From Acidobacteriota bacterium (lineage in GTDB: Bacteria; Acidobacteriota; UBA890; WLXD01), in the NCBI GenBank assembly GCA_965205505.1, contig CBDBHB010000006.1:192001-256000 (forward strand): a DNA stretch of 64,000 nt, written 5' to 3'. Both the position numbers and the translations under genes were made by a program. Below the pieces are notes generated by a model that was not told the DNA's origin, did no database searches, and saw only the letters and a list, made by a program, of their open reading frames with translations. Positions 35,690-47,874 of the stretch are shown in pieces (within the stretch, counting starts at the first letter, position 1; every line of letters starts with the position of its first letter).

Positions 35690-36190
35690 ATGGGCAACGA
35701 GGGCCTCACGCATCTGGACGAGCAAGGTCGAGCTCGGATGGTCGATGTGGGCGACAAGCCCGCGAGTGAGCGGCGCGCCGTGGCGTCGGGATGCCTGGTC
35801 ATGTCAGCGAGCACGCTGGATCTTGTCCTCGCTGGCGAGGTGCCCAAGGGGAACGTCGTCGAGGTCGCCCGCATTGCCGGGATCCAGGCAGCCAAGCGAA
35901 CCGCCGAGCTGATTCCTCTGTGCCACACGCTGCCGCTGTCTTACGTCGATGTTGAAGTCGAACCCGACGCCAACGGATTGCGCGTCACTGCGACGGCTGC
36001 CACCACCGCCGCCACCGGGGTAGAGATGGAGGCGCTAACCGCCGCCGCGGTCGCGTTGCTGACCCTGTACGACATGTGCAAGGCGATCGAGAAGGGCATG
36101 CGCGTTGTCGATTTGCGCCTGGAGGAGAAGACCGGTGGGCGCAGCGGCACATGGGCGCGAACGAAAACAGGGAACCGCGGTTCACAGTAG
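35690..36190 (+). CDS. moaC: cyclic pyranopterin monophosphate synthase
   Basis: LTHLD..G.ARMVDVG.K, LIPLCH, TGVEMEAL, YDMCKA; probably leaderless (TGcTAGGAT 7 nt upstream). Confidence 0.96.
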   Translation: MGNEGLTHLDEQGRARMVDVGDKPASERRAVASGCLVMSASTLDLVLAGEVPKGNVVEVARIAGIQAAKRTAELIPLCHTLPLSYVDVEVEPDANGLRVTATAATTAATGVEMEALTAAAVALLTLYDMCKAIEKGMRVVDLRLEEKTGGRSGTWARTKTGNRGSQ

Positions 36191-36206
36191 CGGAAAAGAT
36201 TTGCCC
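36170..36206. promoter_or_regulatory. tandem putative bEBP binding sites (UAS)
   Basis: GGGAAC-CGCG-GTTCAC and CGGAAA-AGAT-TTGCCC, 21 bp apart, about 95-130 bp upstream of a sigma54 promoter. Confidence 0.6.
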
Positions 36207-36298: not shown

Positions 36299-36314
36299 TG
36301 GCACGCCCATTGCT
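36299..36314 (+). promoter_or_regulatory. sigma54 (-24/-12) promoter
   Basis: TGGCAC-GCCCA-TTGCT, consensus match, 60 bp upstream of ATG 36374. Confidence 0.85.
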
Positions 36315-36373: not shown

Positions 36374-37897
36374 ATGGTCCAGCTCTTCCAGCGCTACGTA
36401 CCCTACAGTAGCGTCGTTCATTTCATGGTTCAGAGCTTGCTTTGCCTGACCGCGTTCACGCTCGTCGTTCAGGTAGCCTGATACACGCAGCTCGATCCGA
36501 CCCTACCGTCGCTGGCGGGTGTGCGCCTCGGCCGTATCGCGACGACCGTGGCCACGTTGGTCAGCGTCTTCTATCTCACCGGATACTTCGAGCGGCGCAA
36601 CCATCTGAGCACGGCGCTGTTCGTGCCGCGTCTTATTCAGGCGGTGCCACTGTCGGCGGCGACGCTCGCCCTGTTGTACCAATTCGTACCGTCGGTGGCA
36701 CTGGGCTGGGAGGTGGCCGGAGCCGGGCTGGGGCTGATGGCCCTGATGATGATCGCGTGGCATTGCGTCGCCCCGAGCATGGTGAGCGAGGATACGCTGG
36801 CCGAGAACATCCTCTTGATCGGCGACGGCGAGCTTGCCTACCAGGTTGCTGATCGCGTCGGCAACGCCGCCCCGTGGGGCTTCCGCCTAATTGGCTACGT
36901 GCCGGTGGACGATGCCCCGCCGTACGATGCGGCGCCCCACGAGGCCCGGGCATCGCCCAGCGCCATCGCCCATCGGCTACGCGGCGGCGGCGCTGTTGGC
37001 AACACCGCCCTGGCGCTCGACGCAGACTCTCGTGTGCTGCCGTTCCCGGTCCCTTTGCGAATCGACGCGCCGGCGCTGGGGCGGCTCCAGGACCTCGATG
37101 CGATTCTCAGTGAGCGCGACGTCCACACGATCGTCGTGGCTCTGAGCGACCGCCGCGGCAAGCTGCCGCTGGCAGCACTGATCCGGGCGAAGCTTCGCGG
37201 TGTAGCCGTGTTCGACGCCATCGAGTTCTACGAGCGGCTTACGGGACGGCTGCTCGTATCGCGGATGCGACCCAGCACGATCATCTTCTCCGACGGTTTC
37301 GCGCCCGGTCGCATCAGCCGCGCCATGAAGCGATTCCTCGACGTGGCTGTGGCTTCGACGCTGCTGGTGATCAGCGCACCCGTGCAGCTGCTCGTTGCAA
37401 TCGCCGTGGCGCTTACCTCGCGCGGTCCGGTGCTCTTCCGGCAAGGGCGCACCGGTATTGCCGGGCTGCCCTTCACGATCCTCAAGTTCCGCACCATGCG
37501 GGTCGACGCCGAGAGTGAAGGCCCCCGTTGGGCAGCCGAAAACGATGATCGCATCACCTCGATCGGCCGCTTCCTGCGCACCTCGCGGCTCAATGAGCTG
37601 CCGCAACTCTGGAACATCCTCCTGGGGCACATGAGCTTCGTTGGCCCGCGGCCGGAGCAACCGGCTTTCGTAAGGATGCTGCGCAATCGAATCCCCTACT
37701 ACGACCAACGTCACGTGATTCGACCCGGCCTAACCGGATGGGCGCAGGTCAAGTATCCGTACGGTGCCAGCGTGGAGGAGACGGTGGAGAAGCTCGAATA
37801 CGACCTCTACTACATCAAGCACAGCTCGATCGCCTTCGACGTCACGATCATGTTCGAGACGGTGCGCGTGATGCTGACCGGCAAGGGTGCGCGATGA
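36374..37897 (+). pseudogene. priming sugar (phosphoglycosyl) transferase, XrtA/PEP-CTERM EPS type, with in-frame TGA at 36479-36481
   Basis: RBS + MVQLFQRYVP N-terminus in frame with the 36521 ORF; KFRTM, ELPQLWN..G.MSFVGPRPE, PGLTGWAQV, DLYYIK. Confidence 0.8.
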
Positions 37898-39105: not shown

Positions 39106-39143
39106 TTCGCTAGGGCACATATATTTCGCTAGGGCACATATAT
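39106..39143. repeat. perfect 19-bp tandem duplication spanning a stop codon
   Basis: TTCGCTAGGGCACATATAT x2. Confidence 0.95.
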
Positions 39144-40340
39144 GATGTCTCCCGACTGCAAGACGAACTCCCCGGCATCCGCGCGGCCCTTCATGACGTC
39201 GCCGTAGCGATACGGAATACGCACCCTCTGATTCTCGATGGTGCGGAGGATCGTGGTGCCGTTCTGGTCGGCGAACTCCGTCGGGCCGCCCGCCATGGAG
39301 ATCGCCTGCAGCACGGTGATGTTGCGATCGAGCGTCACCGGGCCTGGCGTGCCGACGCGGCCGAGCACATAGACCACCAGGCTCTTGATATCGGTGACCG
39401 TGACCGTAACGGTCGGCACCTGAACGAAGTCGCGCAGCAAGGTGGTGATCTCGGCCTCGACCTCTGCCGCTGTCTTTCCGGCCACAGCTAGCTCGCCCAC
39501 GAGCGGCAGCGAGATGTAACCATCGGGCCGCACCGGTACCCGGCGACTGAGCTGCGCGTTGCGCCACACGAACACGTCGACCTGGTCGCCGGGGCCGAGC
39601 CGGTAGTCGCCGCTACCGAACGACCGAGTGTGAGGCTGCCGCTCACCGAGTGATGAGCCGAATCCAACAAGCCGGTCGGGCGCCGGGTAGGAGCTCAGAG
39701 AAGGCTGCGCCGGCGACGGCGCCAACGCATTTCTCTGCGACTGTCCATGGCCTTGCGGTAGCTGACTTTGACCCCAGGCGGATCCGTTCATCGACGCGTG
39801 GCGCGGAAGCTGACGATTCCGGCTGGTCGACACCTGCGGTGGACCCGCCATCGTGGGTGTATCAGCTGCGTCACCAGTGGAGTCCGAAAGGTACGCGCGT
39901 ACGCCGGCCAGCTCAGCTACATCGGTCGACCGAGGACGCTCCACAATCGTCTGCTTGGACGGAGCAAGCCACTGCCCATCTTGCAGCGGAAGCCATGCCA
40001 CACCATCCTCGTCAATCGACGTCGTCTCACCACCCGGGAACGCGCCTGCGGTGGTGGCGTGAGACTCGACGGCAATTGCAGTCGGACGCACCGGAATGCT
40101 CGTCACCCGAGGCGATGCGGGCATGTTGGTAATGACGACGCCATCCCCACCGGCTCGAGTCGGAAGTTGCGCGGGAGCATCCGCCACATGCACAGTGATC
40201 GAGCTGTGCGAAGGCATCACGACGCGAATCGGGATTCGGGGACGATCGTGCTGCTGCGCTACGGCTGCTCCCGGGGCCATGATCAGGCCAATGAGACTCA
40301 GCAGCACGGCAGTGCGTCCAGTTCGGTGTTCGACTCGCAT
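39129..40340 (-). CDS. polysaccharide export protein (Wza-like Poly_export + SLBB) with disordered N-region
   Basis: YRLGPGD...VRPDGYISLPLVGE, VYVLGRV..PG, LQSGDIIYVP; ATG 40340 with GGAG RBS and signal peptide. Confidence 0.88.
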   Translation of the reverse strand: MRVEHRTGRTAVLLSLIGLIMAPGAAVAQQHDRPRIPIRVVMPSHSSITVHVADAPAQLPTRAGGDGVVITNMPASPRVTSIPVRPTAIAVESHATTAGAFPGGETTSIDEDGVAWLPLQDGQWLAPSKQTIVERPRSTDVAELAGVRAYLSDSTGDAADTPTMAGPPQVSTSRNRQLPRHASMNGSAWGQSQLPQGHGQSQRNALAPSPAQPSLSSYPAPDRLVGFGSSLGERQPHTRSFGSGDYRLGPGDQVDVFVWRNAQLSRRVPVRPDGYISLPLVGELAVAGKTAAEVEAEITTLLRDFVQVPTVTVTVTDIKSLVVYVLGRVGTPGPVTLDRNITVLQAISMAGGPTEFADQNGTTILRTIENQRVRIPYRYGDVMKGRADAGEFVLQSGDIIYVP

Positions 40341-40408
40341 CAATGTCTCCGTGGACGCGCCTCTCGGCGTCGCCCCGTTAGGGCTCCGGTTCAAGCGAGC
40401 ATTCCATG

Positions 40409-40424
40409 TGCAATCGGCGTGCCA
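40409..40424 (-). promoter_or_regulatory. sigma54 (-24/-12) promoter
   Basis: Minus strand TGGCAC-GCCGA-TTGCA upstream of the export gene. Confidence 0.85.
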
Positions 40425-40559
40425 CCCCGAGCTTCGGTCCTGACCCTGAACAGAATGACGCGGCGTTGCGCGAGTAGCTTTGATCATTGGATTTTCAACG
40501 CACACCGGCACGCGCCCTCCGGAGGCATCGGGGCCTCGTAGGCGAACCGTCCCGTGGAA

Positions 40560-40597
40560 GGGAAAAAAGCTTCCGGGCGTTGGGAAAAAGACTTCCA
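40560..40597. promoter_or_regulatory. tandem putative bEBP binding sites (UAS)
   Basis: GGGAAA-AAAG-CTTCCG and GGGAAA-AAGA-CTTCCA, 22 bp apart. Confidence 0.65.
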
Positions 40598-40601
40598 TCG
40601 C

Positions 40602-41525
40602 TCACCGCGCGGGGTGCAGGGACGCCATGGCCCGGAGCTTTGCAGACAGCGCCTTGTAGCTGATACCGAGCAGCGCCGCGGCGCGGTGTCGGTCACCCGC
40701 CACGAATTCGAGCGTACGAATCAGCCAGGAACTCTCGGCGTCGCGAACCACCAAACGACGCACCTCCTTGAGTCGCACCGACTGGCCTCGATGCAGCGCC
40801 TCGAGAGCAGCCATCTTCGGCTTCCTTCCCCAGTCGCCGGCAGCGGCGCCGGTAAGCCGACGGACCTCTTGGCGAGCCGCCACGCGTGCATTACGCTGGC
40901 GCACAGCGGCGGCGGCGAAGGAATCGATGTCGCCGAGCGCTGCCGGCCAACGATACCCACGCAGGTAAGTGAGCGCCCGCTCGATTCCCCAGGGCAAATC
41001 GAGCCGCTGATCACGAGAGTGCAGCTCCAAGTAGTGATCGAGAATCCTTGGAAGGTCTGCGTCCCTGGTGTGCAGCGGCGGAAGATCCACGGCGATCAGT
41101 CGATCATGGAGCGGGCGCCGCATCGGCCACTCGTCAGAGTCCGAGCTGACGACCAGGAAGCGCGTAGCGCAGCGTGATCTGAGGTCGATGCGCTCCGCCA
41201 CCTCGATCTGCACCGATGGCGCTAGGCGACCGGGCTCGTCGAGCAGGAGCGATCCACCTGCGGCCCGTTCGCAGGCAGCTCGAAGCTCCGCCCGCTGGTT
41301 CTCGGGTCCGCATTCCGTCAGCCGAGCTCCGTCGACTTCGACCAGCGGGGCGTTGGCTCGTCCGCCCCGATGTAAGGTCAACGCTACCCAGCGTCGGCCC
41401 CCTCCCGGCGCGCCCCTGAAGAGCACGGCGACGGGAAGGCCGGTCAGACGGGCGATCGTAAGCGCCAGAACGGAGTCGGGCGGCGCGGGGTATGCAACTC
41501 GTGAGCCATCTATCGGGGAACCCAT
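40602..41525 (-). CDS. degenerate sigma54-activator-like protein (AAA+ remnant + Fis-type HTH)
   Basis: Walker A altered (GAPGGGRR), no GAFTGA, keeps GGSLLLDE, LPPL, Y.WP and HTH AAALLGISYKAL. Confidence 0.7.
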   Translation of the reverse strand: MGSPIDGSRVAYPAPPDSVLALTIARLTGLPVAVLFRGAPGGGRRWVALTLHRGGRANAPLVEVDGARLTECGPENQRAELRAACERAAGGSLLLDEPGRLAPSVQIEVAERIDLRSRCATRFLVVSSDSDEWPMRRPLHDRLIAVDLPPLHTRDADLPRILDHYLELHSRDQRLDLPWGIERALTYLRGYRWPAALGDIDSFAAAAVRQRNARVAARQEVRRLTGAAAGDWGRKPKMAALEALHRGQSVRLKEVRRLVVRDAESSWLIRTLEFVAGDRHRAAALLGISYKALSAKLRAMASLHPAR

Positions 41526-41538
41526 GTGACGGTTGTGG

Positions 41539-41554
41539 TGCAAGCGATATGCCA
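41539..41554 (-). promoter_or_regulatory. sigma54 (-24/-12) promoter
   Basis: Minus strand TGGCAT-ATCGC-TTGCA. Confidence 0.75.
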
Positions 41555-41671
41555 CGTTCGACGGCGAAGCTCGGGGCTCAGCAGCGCGCCGATGGCGCGG
41601 CCCACGTCGCCTCCTGGCGGCGCCTGTCCAACCTGGTCAGAGGACCGAATCCGACGATGGAGCGACTACAA

Positions 41672-41708
41672 GGGAAAGATTTTTCCCGGTATGGGAACGC
41701 CGCGTACC
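41672..41708. promoter_or_regulatory. putative bEBP binding sites (UAS)
   Basis: Perfect palindrome GGGAAA-GATT-TTTCCC plus weak GGGAAC-GCCG-CGTACC 21 bp away. Confidence 0.65.
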
Positions 41709-41767
41709 GTCCGAGCCAATCGGCACCGTGGCGCACGAGCTGGAACGGCTGGCAGTCGCGCTCGCGA

Positions 41768-43117
41768 TCAGGCAGCGGTAATGCCGCAATTGCGGATCTT
41801 GTACAGCAACGCCTTGTAGCTGATATGAAGGAGATTGGCAGCCTTACGCCGGTTCCACCGCGTCTGCTCGAGCGCCCGGCGGATCAGCTCGCCCTCGACC
41901 TCTAGTGCCGCCAACCGCGACACTTCTTTGAGCGGCGGGATAGCGCCGGCGGTTCCAATCAACGCGTCGACATCGAGCCGGCCCGCGTTGGGGTCACGGT
42001 GCGACCCCAACGATTCGATGCTACCTTCGACATCTTCGAGCACTACCATGCGCCGGATCACGTTCTGCAGCTCGCGAACGTTGCCCGGCCATTCGTGGCG
42101 CGACAACGCGTCCAGGGTCTGCCGGGAGAGCAACCCCAGACTCCGCTCGTACTCGCGCTCGTAGCGGCGTACGAAATGTTGCGCCAGCAGCGGGATCTCG
42201 TCGCGCCGTTGGCACAACGGCGGCACCTCTACGCGAATCACGTTGACACGATAGAACAGGTCCTTACGGAACGAGCCCTCGGAGATCTCGCGCTCCAGGT
42301 CGCGGTTCGTCGAGGTCACGACACGGGCATCGATCTTGATCTCGCCTCTGCCACCGAGTCGGTAGAAGCTGCCGTCCTGCAGTACCTGAAGCAGTTTCGC
42401 CTGCGTACCGCCAGCGATCTCACCGATCTCGTCGAGCAAGATCGTGCCGCCGTTGGCGAGCTCGAACTTCCCCGGCTTGTCTCGATCAGCGCCGGTAAAG
42501 GCACCGCGCTCGTAGCCGAAGAGCTCCGATTCCAGCAGCTGATCGGGCAACGCCGCGCAGTTCACCTTCACGAAGGGGCCGGTCGAACGGCCGGAGACTC
42601 CGTGCAAGTGGCGTGCGACGACCTCTTTGCCAACACCACTGTCGCCGGTGATCAGCACGGGGACGTGGGTATCGGCCACCTGTCGAACCAGTTCGCGTAT
42701 GGCGCGCATCGGCGCCGAGCCGACAACCAGCTCGTCGGTATCAACTCCTCGGGCCGACTCGAGCAGCATGACCAAGGCTCGATCGATTGCCTCGGAAGCC
42801 CCAACGCGGGTGATTCCTTTCACACAGGGGCGCTCCAGGAGCATGCGAATGTTTGCGTCTTCGAGCTCGTCGCTCAGCAACAGCACCGGAATTGATGGCC
42901 CTGCCGCCTGCAACGCATCGAGGGCTTCCGTCAGTGGTCCCTCGCGCTGCTCACCCAGCACGATTGCTTGCGGTCGAAAGCCGTTGCGTAGCACATCGAT
43001 CGCCTCGTCCCGGCTGGCCGCAGCGACGACACGGTAGCCGCTTCCGAGCAACGTCGCCCGCAGACGATCACCGCCGGCGCTGCGGTCGACGAACAAGATC
43101 TTCTTGGGGTCGGGCAT
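41768..43117 (-). CDS. sigma54-dependent transcriptional activator with atypical receiver domain
   Basis: GDSGVGKE, ESELFGYERGAFTGA, LLDEIGE, WPGNVREL, HTH LHISYKALLYK. Confidence 0.93.
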   Translation of the reverse strand: MPDPKKILFVDRSAGGDRLRATLLGSGYRVVAAASRDEAIDVLRNGFRPQAIVLGEQREGPLTEALDALQAAGPSIPVLLLSDELEDANIRMLLERPCVKGITRVGASEAIDRALVMLLESARGVDTDELVVGSAPMRAIRELVRQVADTHVPVLITGDSGVGKEVVARHLHGVSGRSTGPFVKVNCAALPDQLLESELFGYERGAFTGADRDKPGKFELANGGTILLDEIGEIAGGTQAKLLQVLQDGSFYRLGGRGEIKIDARVVTSTNRDLEREISEGSFRKDLFYRVNVIRVEVPPLCQRRDEIPLLAQHFVRRYEREYERSLGLLSRQTLDALSRHEWPGNVRELQNVIRRMVVLEDVEGSIESLGSHRDPNAGRLDVDALIGTAGAIPPLKEVSRLAALEVEGELIRRALEQTRWNRRKAANLLHISYKALLYKIRNCGITAA

Positions 43118-43291
43118 CACGCCAGTCTCCCGGTACAAGGCGGCCAAGGTCGGCCGGCCCGAGGTGCGGACCGGTCGGTCGCAACTCAACCTATGGGAAT
43201 TGGATTGCTCACAGCAATCCAGAATGTTTCCCACCCTCGACACGGCCGCGATCGAGCGGACAGGAGTTGCGTTTGCTGTGCAGGCGTGCGC

Positions 43292-44332
43292 TCAGGCTGC
43301 GCCAGCGCCGCCAAGCAAACGCTCGACCACGCTCTCCCAGGAATGTCGCCGCGCTACCCCGAGGCCGGCTTCGCCCAGCCCCGCGGCCACCTCCGGTCGA
43401 GTCACTCGCTGTAGCGCGATTGCCACGGCGGCGGGCTCGGGCTGCACCACGAAACCGGTCTCGCCGTCGACCACCAGCTCGGCCGGCCCCCCCGAATCGA
43501 CGCAGGTGATCACGGGCTTGGCGGCGCTGAACGCCTCTAGCGTTACCAGGCCGTAGTCCTCGGCTTGGGCCCCATACCAGACCGCGGAGCATCGAGCGTA
43601 TTCGTCGACCAACTCTGCCTCGCTGAGGCGACCCAGGAACTTCACCCGATCGCCTATCTGCAGCGCCTCCGCCAACCCGCGTAGGCGTGCCGCCTCCGGC
43701 CCCTCACCAGCGATCCGCACCGCCAGGGTCGGCGCCTCAGCGACCCCCCTCAGCAGCAGCGCGTTGCGCTTTAGCGGCTGGAGACGCGCGACCGACAACA
43801 CCACACCGTCATAGCCGTCGCAGCGGTACGGACGCTGCGGGGCCGGTGGATGGAGAACTTCCGACTCGGTACCACCCCATCGCTGGAGTCGACCCCGGAT
43901 GGTTTCGGACTGCGCGAAGACCTTTTGACTGTTACCGAGGAAACGCCGGTCCAAGCTGTGTAGGACTCGCCGCCGCAACCCCTCCACGATACGACCGCGC
44001 AGCCCCAGACTAGCGCGGAAGGAATCCCACAGGTCGTAATACTCACGCATTCGGTGGTTGAGCCACACTACGTGATGCGGATGACGTACAGCGTAGGAGG
44101 GGAAGCGCAGGCTGACCACTACATCGACAGGCTTGCCGTCGCCGGTCATGCCGACATCGGTCAGCCAGGTGGCCAGGTAGGCGGAAAGCTGGCGTCCGAA
44201 GCGGTTCTGCGGCGTAGTCAACACCTCGGCGGCGTGACCCAGCTCGCGCAACGCGCGGACGAGCGACCGAGCAATGACACGGTGGCCGCCCTCGACCAAC
44301 GGTACGTCGGAAGTAACTACGAGGGCTCGCAA
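43292..44332 (-). CDS. glycosyltransferase family 4
   Basis: VEGGHR, ARLQPLKR, EDYGLVTLEAF, DSGGPAELV. Confidence 0.9.
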   Translation of the reverse strand: MRALVVTSDVPLVEGGHRVIARSLVRALRELGHAAEVLTTPQNRFGRQLSAYLATWLTDVGMTGDGKPVDVVVSLRFPSYAVRHPHHVVWLNHRMREYYDLWDSFRASLGLRGRIVEGLRRRVLHSLDRRFLGNSQKVFAQSETIRGRLQRWGGTESEVLHPPAPQRPYRCDGYDGVVLSVARLQPLKRNALLLRGVAEAPTLAVRIAGEGPEAARLRGLAEALQIGDRVKFLGRLSEAELVDEYARCSAVWYGAQAEDYGLVTLEAFSAAKPVITCVDSGGPAELVVDGETGFVVQPEPAAVAIALQRVTRPEVAAGLGEAGLGVARRHSWESVVERLLGGAGAA

Positions 44333-45626: not shown

Positions 45627-47864
45627 ATGATTCACAGCACGCCAGCCGATCAACAACGTCGAGCGCGGCATCGCAACCTGATTGTTATCGGGCTGGTGCT
45701 GTTGGTGGCGACGTTCATCGCCATCGAGATCGCCCTGCAGCAATCTACCGATAGCTGGTTACCGGTGTCCAACAAGGTGCTGCTTCATGCGATTACGATA
45801 ATCAACATCGTCCTCGTGCTGGTGCTGCTGTTCGTGCTGGGTCGAAATCTCATCAAGCTGTACGTCGACCGCCGGCACCGGAAGCTGGGTTCCAGGTTCC
45901 AGACCAAGCTCATGGCCACCTATGTGGGTCTGTCGCTGGTGCCCACCATCATCCTCTTCTTGGTAGGCAGCGACTTCATCCAGAAAAGCGTTGATCGCTG
46001 GTTTTCCAAGGACGTGACGTCGGTCCACGAGCGCGCTCGCGACCTCGTGCGCGAGGCCTCCGAGGTCCAGCAACTGCAATTACTCGGGCTCGGTGCTGCG
46101 CTAGCCGCGGAGATCACCGAGGGACGCCTGTTCCCGAACGAGGCCTGGCAGCTCTTGAGCCGCGAGATGAGTCGCAAGCTCGAGCTCGGATACCTCGACG
46201 TCGACGCCGTGGCCGTCTATCGAGACCATGAGCAGCCACATGCACCGGTGCTGCGAATCGACAGCTTCCTGCAGGGGCGTGAGTACCTGCTCGACATACC
46301 GAGCACCTCGATTCTGATGGGCATGTCGGGACAGCCATTCCGCCACGACATGGAGATCGAAGGCGGCAATCGCCTGATCCTCGCAGGTGTACCCATTTAC
46401 GCGCCGGCGGACCGTGAGGTCGACGGCGTGCTGGTGGTAGCACGAGTAATCGACGGGGCGCTGGCAGCCGAGCTTGCCGCGGTGCTCGACATCTACGCCG
46501 ACTACACGCAGGGCATCGAGGAGAAGGAGCCGATCACCAACGCCTATATCCTGACCTTCCTGCTCTTGAGCTTGCTGATCGTGTTCGGGGCAGTGTGGCT
46601 GGGGCTCTATCTGGCGAAGGGCGTTACCGGGCCCATCCGGAGTCTGTCGGAAGGTACCCGCGCGGTGGCGGCAGGGAACCTCGACTATCGGGTCCAGGTC
46701 GAGAGCAACGACGAGCTCGGCTCGCTGGTGGAGTCGTTCAACCGAATGACCGAGGATCTCTCGGTCGGCCAGCGCAACCTGGAGCAGTCCCGAACGGAGT
46801 TAGAGGGCAGCATCTCCGAGCTCGAGGAACGACGCAGCTACATGGAATCAGTACTGGCGAACATCGCCACCGGGGTAGCCTCGATGAACGCCGAGGGGCA
46901 CATTACGACATTCAACCGAGCTACCGCCGACATGCTGGGCATCGACGCGGGCGCGGCCATCGGCAAACCGTATGGAGAGGTCTTTGCCGGCGATAACTTC
47001 GCTGAGCTGCGAACGCTCATACAGCACGCGCGTCCGCGGTTGGCAGCGCTGGAAGAAGAGCTGACGGTAGAGGCCGCCGGCCAGCGGCTGACGCTCGCCG
47101 TGCACTGCTCGAGCCTGCGCGACAAATCGAGTGGGTATCTCGGCACCGTCGTGGTGCTCGATGACCTCACCGGGCGAATCCGCGCCCAAAAGGTCGCTGC
47201 CTGGCGCGAGGTGGCACGCCGGATCGCCCACGAAATCCGCAATCCGCTCACTCCGATCCAGCTCTCGGCGCAGCGTATCGCCCGTCGCTACAAGCGCGCC
47301 GTCGGAGCCGAGGACGAGTACGCCGTAATCGACGAAGGGACCCGCACGATTCTGCAGGAGGTCGCCACGCTGAAGTCGCTGGTGGAAGAATTCAGCCGCT
47401 TCGCACGCATGCCGTCGGCCAAGCCTGTTTCGTCCGACCTTCACCGGATCCTCGAGGACAGTCTACGCCCGTATCCCGAGCTCCATCCGGAGCTCGAGAT
47501 CAAACGGAATTTGACCGCCGACGTACCGCCGTTGCAGCTTGACCCAGACCAAATGCGACGGGCGTTCACCAACCTGTTCGATAACGCGGTCAAAGCAATG
47601 CAAGGCAACGGGCGACTGAGCGTCACCACCGTGTTCGACTCTGATCTCGAGGTAGTTCGGGTGGAAGTCGCCGACAACGGCCCCGGAATCCGCCCGGAAG
47701 ACAAGGACCGGCTGTTCATTCCGTACTTCTCCCGAGAACACGACGGAACCGGGTTGGGCTTGGCAATCGTGCGGCAGATCGTCTCGGATCACCGTGGATA
47801 CATACGGGTCGTCGACAACGTGCCTCACGGCACTACCTTTGTCGTTGAGTTGCCGACAAGCTGA
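45627..47864 (+). CDS. ntrY: NtrY-like HAMP-PAS sensor histidine kinase
   Basis: TM region with GSRFQTKL, HAMP, PAS, AWREVARRIAHEIRNPLTPIQLSAQR, NA, DNGPG, GTGLGL. Confidence 0.9.
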   Translation: MIHSTPADQQRRARHRNLIVIGLVLLVATFIAIEIALQQSTDSWLPVSNKVLLHAITIINIVLVLVLLFVLGRNLIKLYVDRRHRKLGSRFQTKLMATYVGLSLVPTIILFLVGSDFIQKSVDRWFSKDVTSVHERARDLVREASEVQQLQLLGLGAALAAEITEGRLFPNEAWQLLSREMSRKLELGYLDVDAVAVYRDHEQPHAPVLRIDSFLQGREYLLDIPSTSILMGMSGQPFRHDMEIEGGNRLILAGVPIYAPADREVDGVLVVARVIDGALAAELAAVLDIYADYTQGIEEKEPITNAYILTFLLLSLLIVFGAVWLGLYLAKGVTGPIRSLSEGTRAVAAGNLDYRVQVESNDELGSLVESFNRMTEDLSVGQRNLEQSRTELEGSISELEERRSYMESVLANIATGVASMNAEGHITTFNRATADMLGIDAGAAIGKPYGEVFAGDNFAELRTLIQHARPRLAALEEELTVEAAGQRLTLAVHCSSLRDKSSGYLGTVVVLDDLTGRIRAQKVAAWREVARRIAHEIRNPLTPIQLSAQRIARRYKRAVGAEDEYAVIDEGTRTILQEVATLKSLVEEFSRFARMPSAKPVSSDLHRILEDSLRPYPELHPELEIKRNLTADVPPLQLDPDQMRRAFTNLFDNAVKAMQGNGRLSVTTVFDSDLEVVRVEVADNGPGIRPEDKDRLFIPYFSREHDGTGLGLAIVRQIVSDHRGYIRVVDNVPHGTTFVVELPTS

Positions 47865-47874
47865 GCGCGCGACG

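Follow-up and report, generated by a model that had tools for sequence, protein, structure and literature searches.

A catalytically dead relative of sigma-54 activators beside an intact activator in an acidobacterial exopolysaccharide locus: a candidate self-induced modulator

A locus with exopolysaccharide (EPS) genes was analyzed in a 64,000-nucleotide stretch of contig CBDBHB010000006.1 (hereafter the window) from an Acidobacteriota bacterium, assembly GCA_965205505.1. The minus strand of 40602-43243 carries two genes. The upstream gene encodes an intact sigma-54 activator, or bacterial enhancer-binding protein (bEBP), and the downstream gene encodes a shorter, catalytically dead bEBP-like protein (hereafter the dead copy). 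Promoters of the -24/-12 (sigma-54) type, each with candidate upstream activating sequences (UAS), lie before the dead copy, an EPS export gene, and a priming glycosyltransferase gene. The coordinates are collected in Table 1. The rpoN gene is present in the genome (437.9 bits, above cut-off).

Table 1 Features of the locus. Carrier genomes are the six genomes with the dead copy; genome handles are introduced in the text.
Feature	Position	Strand	Evidence or conservation
Intact sigma-54 activator (bEBP): pseudo-receiver, AAA+, HTH_8	41768..43117	-	Pfam, motifs
Catalytically dead bEBP-like protein, 307 aa: AAA+ remnant without L1/L2 loops, lid, long helix, HTH_8	40602..41525	-	
-24/-12 promoter of the dead copy, TGGCATATCGCTTGCA	41539..41554	-	pattern match, kept in 6/6 carrier genomes
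UAS, perfect palindrome GGGAAAGATTTTTCCC, 133 bp upstream of the dead-copy promoter	41672..41687		
Conserved block GGACAGG-N5-CCAGGA, between the UAS and the dead-copy promoter	41612..41629	-	5/6 genomes, alignment read by eye
Wza/EpsE-like polysaccharide export gene	39129..40340	-	Poly_export 8.5e-25, SLBB
-24/-12 promoter of the EPS export gene, TGGCACGCCGATTGCA	40409..40424	-	kept in G001-G003, G006, G009, G010
Two tandem UAS-like copies (40560-40575 and 40582-40597), right after the dead-copy stop codon	40560..40597		
XrtA/PEP-CTERM-type priming glycosyltransferase (EpsB_2)	36521..37897	+	TIGR03013 423.2 bits, above 393.35 cut-off
-24/-12 promoter of the priming glycosyltransferase	36299..36314	+	kept in G002, G003
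Two UAS-like copies: 36170-36185 (3 mismatches) and 36191-36206 (2 mismatches)	36170..36206		

The open frame of the dead copy spans 40602-41555(-). The GTG at 41555 falls within the promoter, and the start was therefore taken as the ATG at 41525, which is the start in all orthologs and in all database gene calls (P0001-P0005, 303-307 aa). The protein matched Pfam HTH_8 (1.3e-5, 25.2 bits, cut-off 22) and Sigma54_activat (PF00158; 20.2 bits, exactly at the cut-off of 20.2), and its residues 33-308 were aligned to positions 149-461 of the NCBIfam ntrC model. It has no sensory N-terminal domain. The AlphaFold2 model is confident, with a mean predicted local distance difference score (pLDDT) of 91.5 and a predicted template modeling score (pTM) of 0.79. 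The best Foldseek matches of this model in the PDB were ZraR, NtrX, NtrC1, and PspF (E 1e-10 to 1e-8), with VpsR at rank 46. In the ESM Atlas, short bEBP-like clusters are common, and some of them are recognized through the lid and the helix-turn-helix (HTH) alone.

The motifs were compared in an alignment of the dead copy, its relatives, the activator, and 18 canonical bEBPs. The dead copy's Walker A motif reads GAPGGGRR, with the Lys changed to Arg, and fails the pattern GxxxxGK. Compared with the activator and the canonical proteins, the dead-copy clade is without the whole ESELFG...GAFTGA segment (loop L1) and without the insertion before sensor I (loop L2). Also gone from the clade are the Thr/Asn of sensor I and the Arg of sensor II, where ALGDI stands in place of NVREL. 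What is retained in the dead copy includes the P-loop glycines G38, G41, and G43, residues A48, H52, Q106, and R122, and the PPL..R and WP motifs of the lid. The three glycines and W46 are conserved throughout the clade as GxxGxGRRW; the R137...D141-R142 Arg-finger segment is kept within the genus only, and some clade members (P0017-P0019) still have the Walker A Lys. On alignment and predicted structure, the dead copy has kept the bEBP fold and lost precisely those parts that hydrolyze ATP and contact sigma-54. As an EBP homolog without a functional GAFTGA, it has one feature in common with the atypical EBPs.

The promoters were searched with the exact pattern TGGCAY-N5-TTGCW, and the UAS with GGGAAA-N4-TTTCCC, allowing up to 2 mismatches within 260 bp upstream of a promoter. 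The window holds 3 exact promoter matches, where 0.08 is expected and none of 100 shuffles reached 3. The whole 5.98-Mb genome holds 10, 3 of which are those of this locus, and these three are the only ones among the 10 with a UAS upstream. Genome-wide, 88 words match the UAS pattern (1 perfect, 4 with one mismatch, and 83 with two mismatches), and the sole perfect palindrome is the one upstream of the dead copy. The dead-copy promoter has this single perfect UAS, and the export and glycosyltransferase promoters each have two tandem imperfect sites. When the promoter pattern was relaxed to give 753 candidates in the genome, only weak, unconvincing promoter/UAS pairs were added elsewhere, and the regulon therefore looks confined to this locus. 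Another -24/-12-like word, TGGCTCACGAGTTGCA, which lies within the codons for the dead copy's N-terminus (41493-41508(-)), was dropped because it is not conserved in the same-genus genome G001. IHF-type (integration host factor) bending sites usually lie where the GGACAGG-N5-CCAGGA block is placed; the block is unlike the IHF consensus, and it may be a site for an architectural protein or for a second regulator.

In all six carrier genomes, the ATG of the dead copy stands exactly 13 nt after the TTGCA of the promoter (window 41523-41543(-); L002-L005 and L009). No Shine-Dalgarno sequence was found before this ATG; at the export gene, GGAG stands 8 nt ahead of the start codon. Because of the 13-nt distance, the layout implies that the mRNA of the dead copy is driven by sigma-54 and is leaderless or nearly so, with the start codon predicted at about +1 to +4 and a leader of 0-3 nt.

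The dead copy and the activator share 28% identity over 310 columns in BLASTP (E 8e-17). Their HTH cores, AAALLGISYKALSAKLR and AANLLHISYKALLYKIR, are identical at 12 of 17 positions; the other 8 full bEBP ORFs (open reading frames) of the genome reach 6-8 of 17, as counted by eye in an alignment. Among the bEBP ORFs of the genome, the hexapeptide ISYKAL occurs only in the activator and the dead copy. A quick maximum-likelihood tree of 51 rows groups 13 of the 14 twin-like proteins in a single clade (SH-aLRT 99), which none of the canonical bEBPs joins; the activator clade, too, stands outside it. P0033 ('MAG: sigma 54-interacting transcriptional regulator [Longimicrobiales bacterium]') lies outside this clade as well. 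A recent tandem duplication of the neighboring activator is not supported by this tree, since the twin-like proteins stand in a clade of their own. In the approximately unbiased (AU) test, a topology with the two clades held together is not rejected (p 0.384), with long branches affecting both the tree and the test, so that an origin through an old duplication of the activator is neither demonstrated nor excluded by the sequences. An earlier note on this DNA, made from its letters, had called the dead copy a twin of the activator, which overstates a kinship of 28% identity and separate clades. Its description of the genes was sound: an intact bEBP with GDSGVGKE and GAFTGA, followed by an ORF of about 300 aa with an AAA+ remnant lacking the Walker A Lys and GAFTGA, an HTH shared with the activator, a -24/-12 promoter of its own, and the best copy of the shared UAS were all found here, at or close to the positions it gave.

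The dead-copy protein was used for an ortholog search of 61 related genomes. Besides the present genome (G000), orthologs of the same genus were found in G001, G002, and G003 at 69-76% identity; two further genera of the family gave matches that are weaker yet specific (G008, 39% over residues 9-197; G007, 29% over residues 2-231). A clade-profile search was extended to 301 genomes of the phylum, three of them unpublished and counted solely as negatives. Twin-type matches (E 1e-64 or better) were obtained only in these six carriers, and no other genome scored better than 1e-43, a level that ordinary bEBPs reach. In every carrier, across three genera, the dead copy lies directly downstream of the activator ortholog with an open frame, and the strict -24/-12 element precedes it at identical spacing. 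The UAS reads GGGAAAA[A/C]TCTTTCCC in the four genomes of the genus, with a looser variant in G007 and G008. The tandem UAS-like copies of the export gene are conserved in the genus as well. The dead copy was never seen without the activator among the genomes examined: both genes are missing from G004 of the same genus and G005 of the same family, where the best matches to the activator are at 39-42% identity. The activator without the dead copy was observed in G006, G009, and G010 of another genus: variant UAS-like sites come directly after the activator ortholog (60-61% identity), and the -24/-12 promoter and the export gene follow. Since these three genomes have the activator, the promoter, and the UAS without it, the dead copy is evidently dispensable for activation, and this pattern of occurrence suggests an accessory modulator. 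A search for related loci gave none for P0020 (genome contigs) or P0017 (metagenome contigs).

The earlier note had proposed two sequence-based checks, a survey of related genomes for the active/dead pair and the ratio of nonsynonymous to synonymous substitution rates (dN/dS) by domain, and both speak for a maintained gene. In all six carriers, the Walker A Lys is replaced by Arg, Cys, or other residues and GAFTGA is absent, contrary to a copy that is decaying in this genome. Approximate Nei-Gojobori dN/dS among the four same-genus sequences was 0.18-0.23 for the whole gene, not near 1, and below 0.5 in every domain (N-terminus, 0.11-0.40; AAA alpha/beta, 0.17-0.34; lid, 0.16-0.47; linker, 0.09-0.28; HTH, 0.09-0.23). 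The comparison values were 0.12-0.16 for the activator and 0.07-0.12 for the C-terminal domain of the export gene. By these comparisons, selection maintains the dead copy as a genuine gene, and it is not decaying.

The HTH is not universal in the family. The G007 ortholog ends without it, and tblastn found no remnant downstream; the relatives P0014, P0015, and P0017 have a different short tail instead. The conserved core of the family consists of the AAA+ remnant, the lid, and the following helix. Because this core excludes the HTH, it points to a common function between proteins rather than between protein and DNA.

The start of the activator is likely the ATG at 43117, and its open frame reaches a GTG at 43243 (41768-43243(-)). 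Its Pfam matches are Sigma54_activat (1.7e-65), AAA_lid_14 (1.2e-20), and HTH_8 (1.4e-9); against TIGR02915, the model of the PrsR-type regulator, it scored 301.6 bits, below the cut-off of 502.6. The N-terminal region of about 120 residues is receiver-like, yet no Response_reg match was found in the Pfam scan. In an alignment with canonical response regulators, the column of the phospho-acceptor Asp is Gly in 5 of the 6 activator orthologs that cover it, and the conserved Lys-Pro of receivers is absent. The N-terminus is best read as a pseudo-receiver, and for this reason the activator is probably not controlled by phosphorylation. The activators of the three genomes without a dead copy carry the same pseudo-receiver.

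Upstream of the activator, at 43195-43232(-), lies a nested inverted repeat, GGGAAAC-N5-GGATTGCT-GTG-AGCAATCC-AA-TTCCC. It is conserved in G006, G009, and G010, with substitutions that preserve G.U pairs on the sense strand. The predicted RNA fold is -21 kcal/mol (z -2.45), no Rfam family was matched, and the outer arms resemble UAS half-sites; the repeat could be a hairpin of the 5' untranslated region or an operator. Rfam over 40200-43500 gave only two sub-threshold chance matches. Another conserved non-coding block, GCAGCA[A/G]ACGCAACTCCTG[T/G]CCG, lies at 43240-43275(-), just past a glycosyltransferase stop codon, and is common to G000, G006, G009, and G010.

The full dead copy was also modeled in complex with residues 120-449 of the activator. 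Among solved complexes, 116 of 157 reach the pass mark of the ipSAE interface score, as do 2 of 215 mismatched pairs. The complex scored 0.66 (runs 0.68, 0.64, and 0.66), and the best control scored 0.01. Between runs, 83% or more of the contacts agree, and the partner pLDDT is at least 78. Two interfaces are predicted. The first is a Fis/NtrC-type dimer through the pre-HTH helices and the HTH (activator 393-432, twin 232-288). The second is a ring-type AAA+ contact, in which residues 137-147 of the dead copy, the Arg-finger region, face the P-loop (160-161) and sensor II (344-361) of the activator.

Restraint of sigma-54 activators normally comes from a sensory domain within the protein or from an unrelated anti-activator, for example PspA, HrpV, FleN, or NifL. 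The locus described here pairs a pseudo-receiver activator with a conserved, hard-wired inactive member of the same family, which is apparently induced by this activator. Our preferred reading, to which we give roughly even odds (about 0.5), is that the protein of 307 aa, a relative of the sigma-54 activators, is functional without catalysis: induced by the activator, it would modulate an EPS regulon of three promoters. The activator would bind GGGAAA-N4-TTTCCC-type sites and drive the sigma-54 promoters of the glycosyltransferase, the export gene, and the dead copy. The dead copy, unable to hydrolyze ATP or touch sigma-54, would pair with the activator; in this genus the contact would run through the C-terminal dimerization helices and HTH, and in general through the AAA+ ring interface. 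The complexes at the UAS would then hold fewer working subunits, and the output would fall, giving a negative feedback. The parts of this reading differ in strength. The conserved sigma-54 promoter and the shared UAS support the wiring of the dead copy to the activator. From the complex model we infer the physical pairing of the two proteins, and that the effect is negative is wholly an inference.

The earlier note had linked the dead copy to the activator through a promoter with the shared UAS, a link that is strengthened by a promoter kept in all carriers and a UAS kept in the genus. It had further proposed a decoy that binds the same sites or poisons hexamers. The decoy half does not stand as a general mechanism: competition for DNA sites cannot be how the family as a whole works, because G007, P0014, P0015, and P0017 have no HTH. 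Poisoning of hexamers, or in broader terms a direct partnership between the two proteins, would fit better, as the complex model suggests.

Several points weigh against the preferred reading. The six carrier genomes are kin and not independent samples. The dS values of 0.6-1.2 are near saturation and make the dN/dS ratios approximate, yet these remain far from neutrality. The Walker B DE is kept in G000 (LLLDEP; AE or QE in P0004 and P0005), and the sequence does not exclude some nucleotide binding in this species. The pass of the complex model may reflect likeness to solved bEBP/Fis-type dimers, rings, and homologous homo-oligomers, and the HTH-less orthologs of the sister genera are without part of the predicted interface. 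By analogy, the FleQ/FleT pair indicates that an activator-induced partner can act positively.

That last point leads to the best surviving alternative, which keeps some credit while being unlikely: a positive partner in a feed-forward design. The activator would first induce the dead copy, and the mixed complex would then be what activates the structural promoters efficiently, or the dead copy would aid assembly of the pseudo-receiver activator on its two-site enhancers. The wiring matches that from FleQ to fleT in Rhodobacter (Cereibacter) sphaeroides, where, in the available text, a master bEBP activates a second, shorter bEBP-like gene via a sigma-54 promoter and the resulting hetero-oligomer activates later promoters (PMC10084136, PMC7277832). 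FleT is described there without an N-terminal domain and without an HTH, like the G007-type orthologs. The single perfect UAS at the dead copy versus two imperfect sites at the structural promoters is compatible with a temporal hierarchy, and the Arg-finger region kept in the genus is modeled against the ATP site of the activator. However, the genomes G006, G009, and G010 indicate that the activator does not need the dead copy. FleT is presented as a second activator whose hetero-oligomer is active, whereas the partner here has lost the Walker A Lys, L1, and L2; in the available text on known positive partners, the loss of the sigma-54-contact loops and catalytic residues is not reported.

Somewhat less probable is an independent atypical EBP like VpsR, TyrR, or NtrX. 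Its HTH would bind DNA and repress or activate sigma-70-type promoters, or occlude the UAS, without touching the activator. EBPs without GAFTGA that work with sigma-70 are documented, among them VpsR on polysaccharide genes (PMC6158489), and VpsR is also among the fold matches. Within the genus, no domain is more constrained than the HTH, in which the dead copy and the activator have ISYKAL in common. The orthologs and relatives without an HTH, which keep the AAA+ remnant, the promoter, and the position beside the activator, argue against this; no sigma-70 target promoter was identified, and the sensory N-terminal domain is missing. In the available text, the atypical EBPs VpsR, TyrR, HupR, PhhR, HsfA, and NtrX have an altered GAFTGA and sometimes altered Walker motifs, and they are stand-alone sigma-70 regulators with sensory N-domains, not described behind a sigma-54 promoter beside a bEBP that shares their HTH (PMC6158489).

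A signal-sensing subunit is improbable. Here the degenerate P-loop pocket GxxGxGRRW would bind a nucleotide or second messenger and make the pseudo-receiver activator responsive. The clade-wide conservation of G38, G41, and G43 and of the RW after them (W46), the Lys kept in P0017-P0019, and an activator without a phospho-acceptor are consistent with it, and in the available text FleQ and VpsR are known examples of bEBPs whose AAA+ domains place EPS under the control of cyclic diguanylate (PMC6158489). Against it, conservation is missing at the sensor II Arg and at Walker B, and the genomes without the dead copy have the same pseudo-receiver activator. The weakest alternative, a decaying duplicate with no function, has the loss of all catalytic motifs and a slightly lower GC content at third codon positions than the activator (0.72 vs 0.74-0.78) on its side, and it can be dismissed as very improbable, because intact frames in all carriers, low dN/dS, and a promoter and start spacing conserved across three genera rule out a pseudogene and the same motif losses run throughout a clade with SH-aLRT 99.

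The preferred reading, an activator-induced modulator, also has a far more specific form, which we regard as a long shot. The clade of bEBP-derived pseudo-ATPases would consist of dedicated, self-induced anti-activators, which would join the dimer or ring of the activator, turn an Arg-finger face to its ATP site, and offer no contact to sigma-54. The GxxGxGRRW P-loop, with its conserved glycines and without the Lys, would sense a nucleotide messenger, so that the EPS feedback would be signal-dependent, and the protein would be made from a near-leaderless sigma-54 mRNA with its start codon fixed 13 nt after the -12 element.

The modulator reading was compared with known pairs of bEBPs. Like those pairs, the locus has two bEBP-family genes, adjacent in all carriers, with a shared UAS and a shared HTH motif; two competent AAA+ activator subunits are not found here. 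In HrpR/HrpS, FleQ/FleT, and RedR1/RedR2, both partners act as activators, as far as the available text describes them (PMC10084136, PMC3105312). HrpR and HrpS of Pseudomonas syringae are tandem bEBP paralogs without N-domains and with partial degeneration, and they form a hetero-hexamer in which the HTH region aids oligomerization (PMC3105312). They are described as co-dependent activators that both contact sigma-54 and are 55-65% identical, with negative control from the unrelated HrpV, whereas the present pair is 28% identical and one member is dead. RedR1 and RedR2 of Aromatoleum anaerobium are adjacent bEBPs that prefer hetero-oligomers, and the inactive form of one inhibits the active other (PMC10084136). 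By analogy, this account is a direct precedent for poisoning by an inactive subunit. The RedR proteins are described as nearly identical and both competent activators, with conditional inactivity; here the inactivity is hard-wired.

Other antagonists were also compared, within the available text. PspA, HrpV, FleN, and NifL follow the same logic of binding an activator and lowering its output, but their folds are unrelated to bEBPs. In TrlR/TraR and CerN/CerM, the antagonist is a crippled paralog, as here, but of the LuxR family. PexR was rejected as an analog, being an ordinary ATP-binding bEBP in the available text and not close (PMC12754779). In full-text literature (subscription-only literature was not covered), neither a bEBP-derived antagonist nor this acidobacterial system turned up. 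By its sequence features, the present protein unites traits of the hetero-oligomeric pairs and of the atypical EBPs: a fully dead, loop-less bEBP relative beside an intact one, with a shared HTH motif and a sigma-54 promoter that carries the best site of the activator. Regulation in Acidobacteria is regarded as little studied. Should the dead copy damp the activator, this would be a case of a pseudo-enzyme that arose from a bEBP and works in feedback, and a natural counterpart of the mixed active/inactive rings made in vitro. The system is small, with three promoters, one palindrome, and two proteins, and the relatives without the dead copy are natural minus controls.

For the EPS genes, the start of the export gene was placed at the Met before a signal-like segment, the one preceded by GGAG at 8 nt. 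The exporter scored 137.7 bits against TIGR03027, under the cut-off of 180. At 2.4 kb from the locus, 45627-49251(+) encodes a histidine kinase (AtoS/NtrY-like) and then a complete NtrX/AtoC-like bEBP response regulator.

Elsewhere in G000, strict or near-strict -24/-12 sites at C6:33589, C6:68409, C9:1720835, and C5:1860 adjoin bEBP genes (C6_31782-33173, C6_66697-68226, C9_1720991-1722409, and C5_3871-5379, respectively), which suggests several small bEBP-adjacent regulons in this genome. Two further bEBP ORFs, C6:414214-415776 and C6:521148-522710, score equally against the activator and have identical C-termini on opposite strands, which points to a duplicated segment about 107 kb apart.

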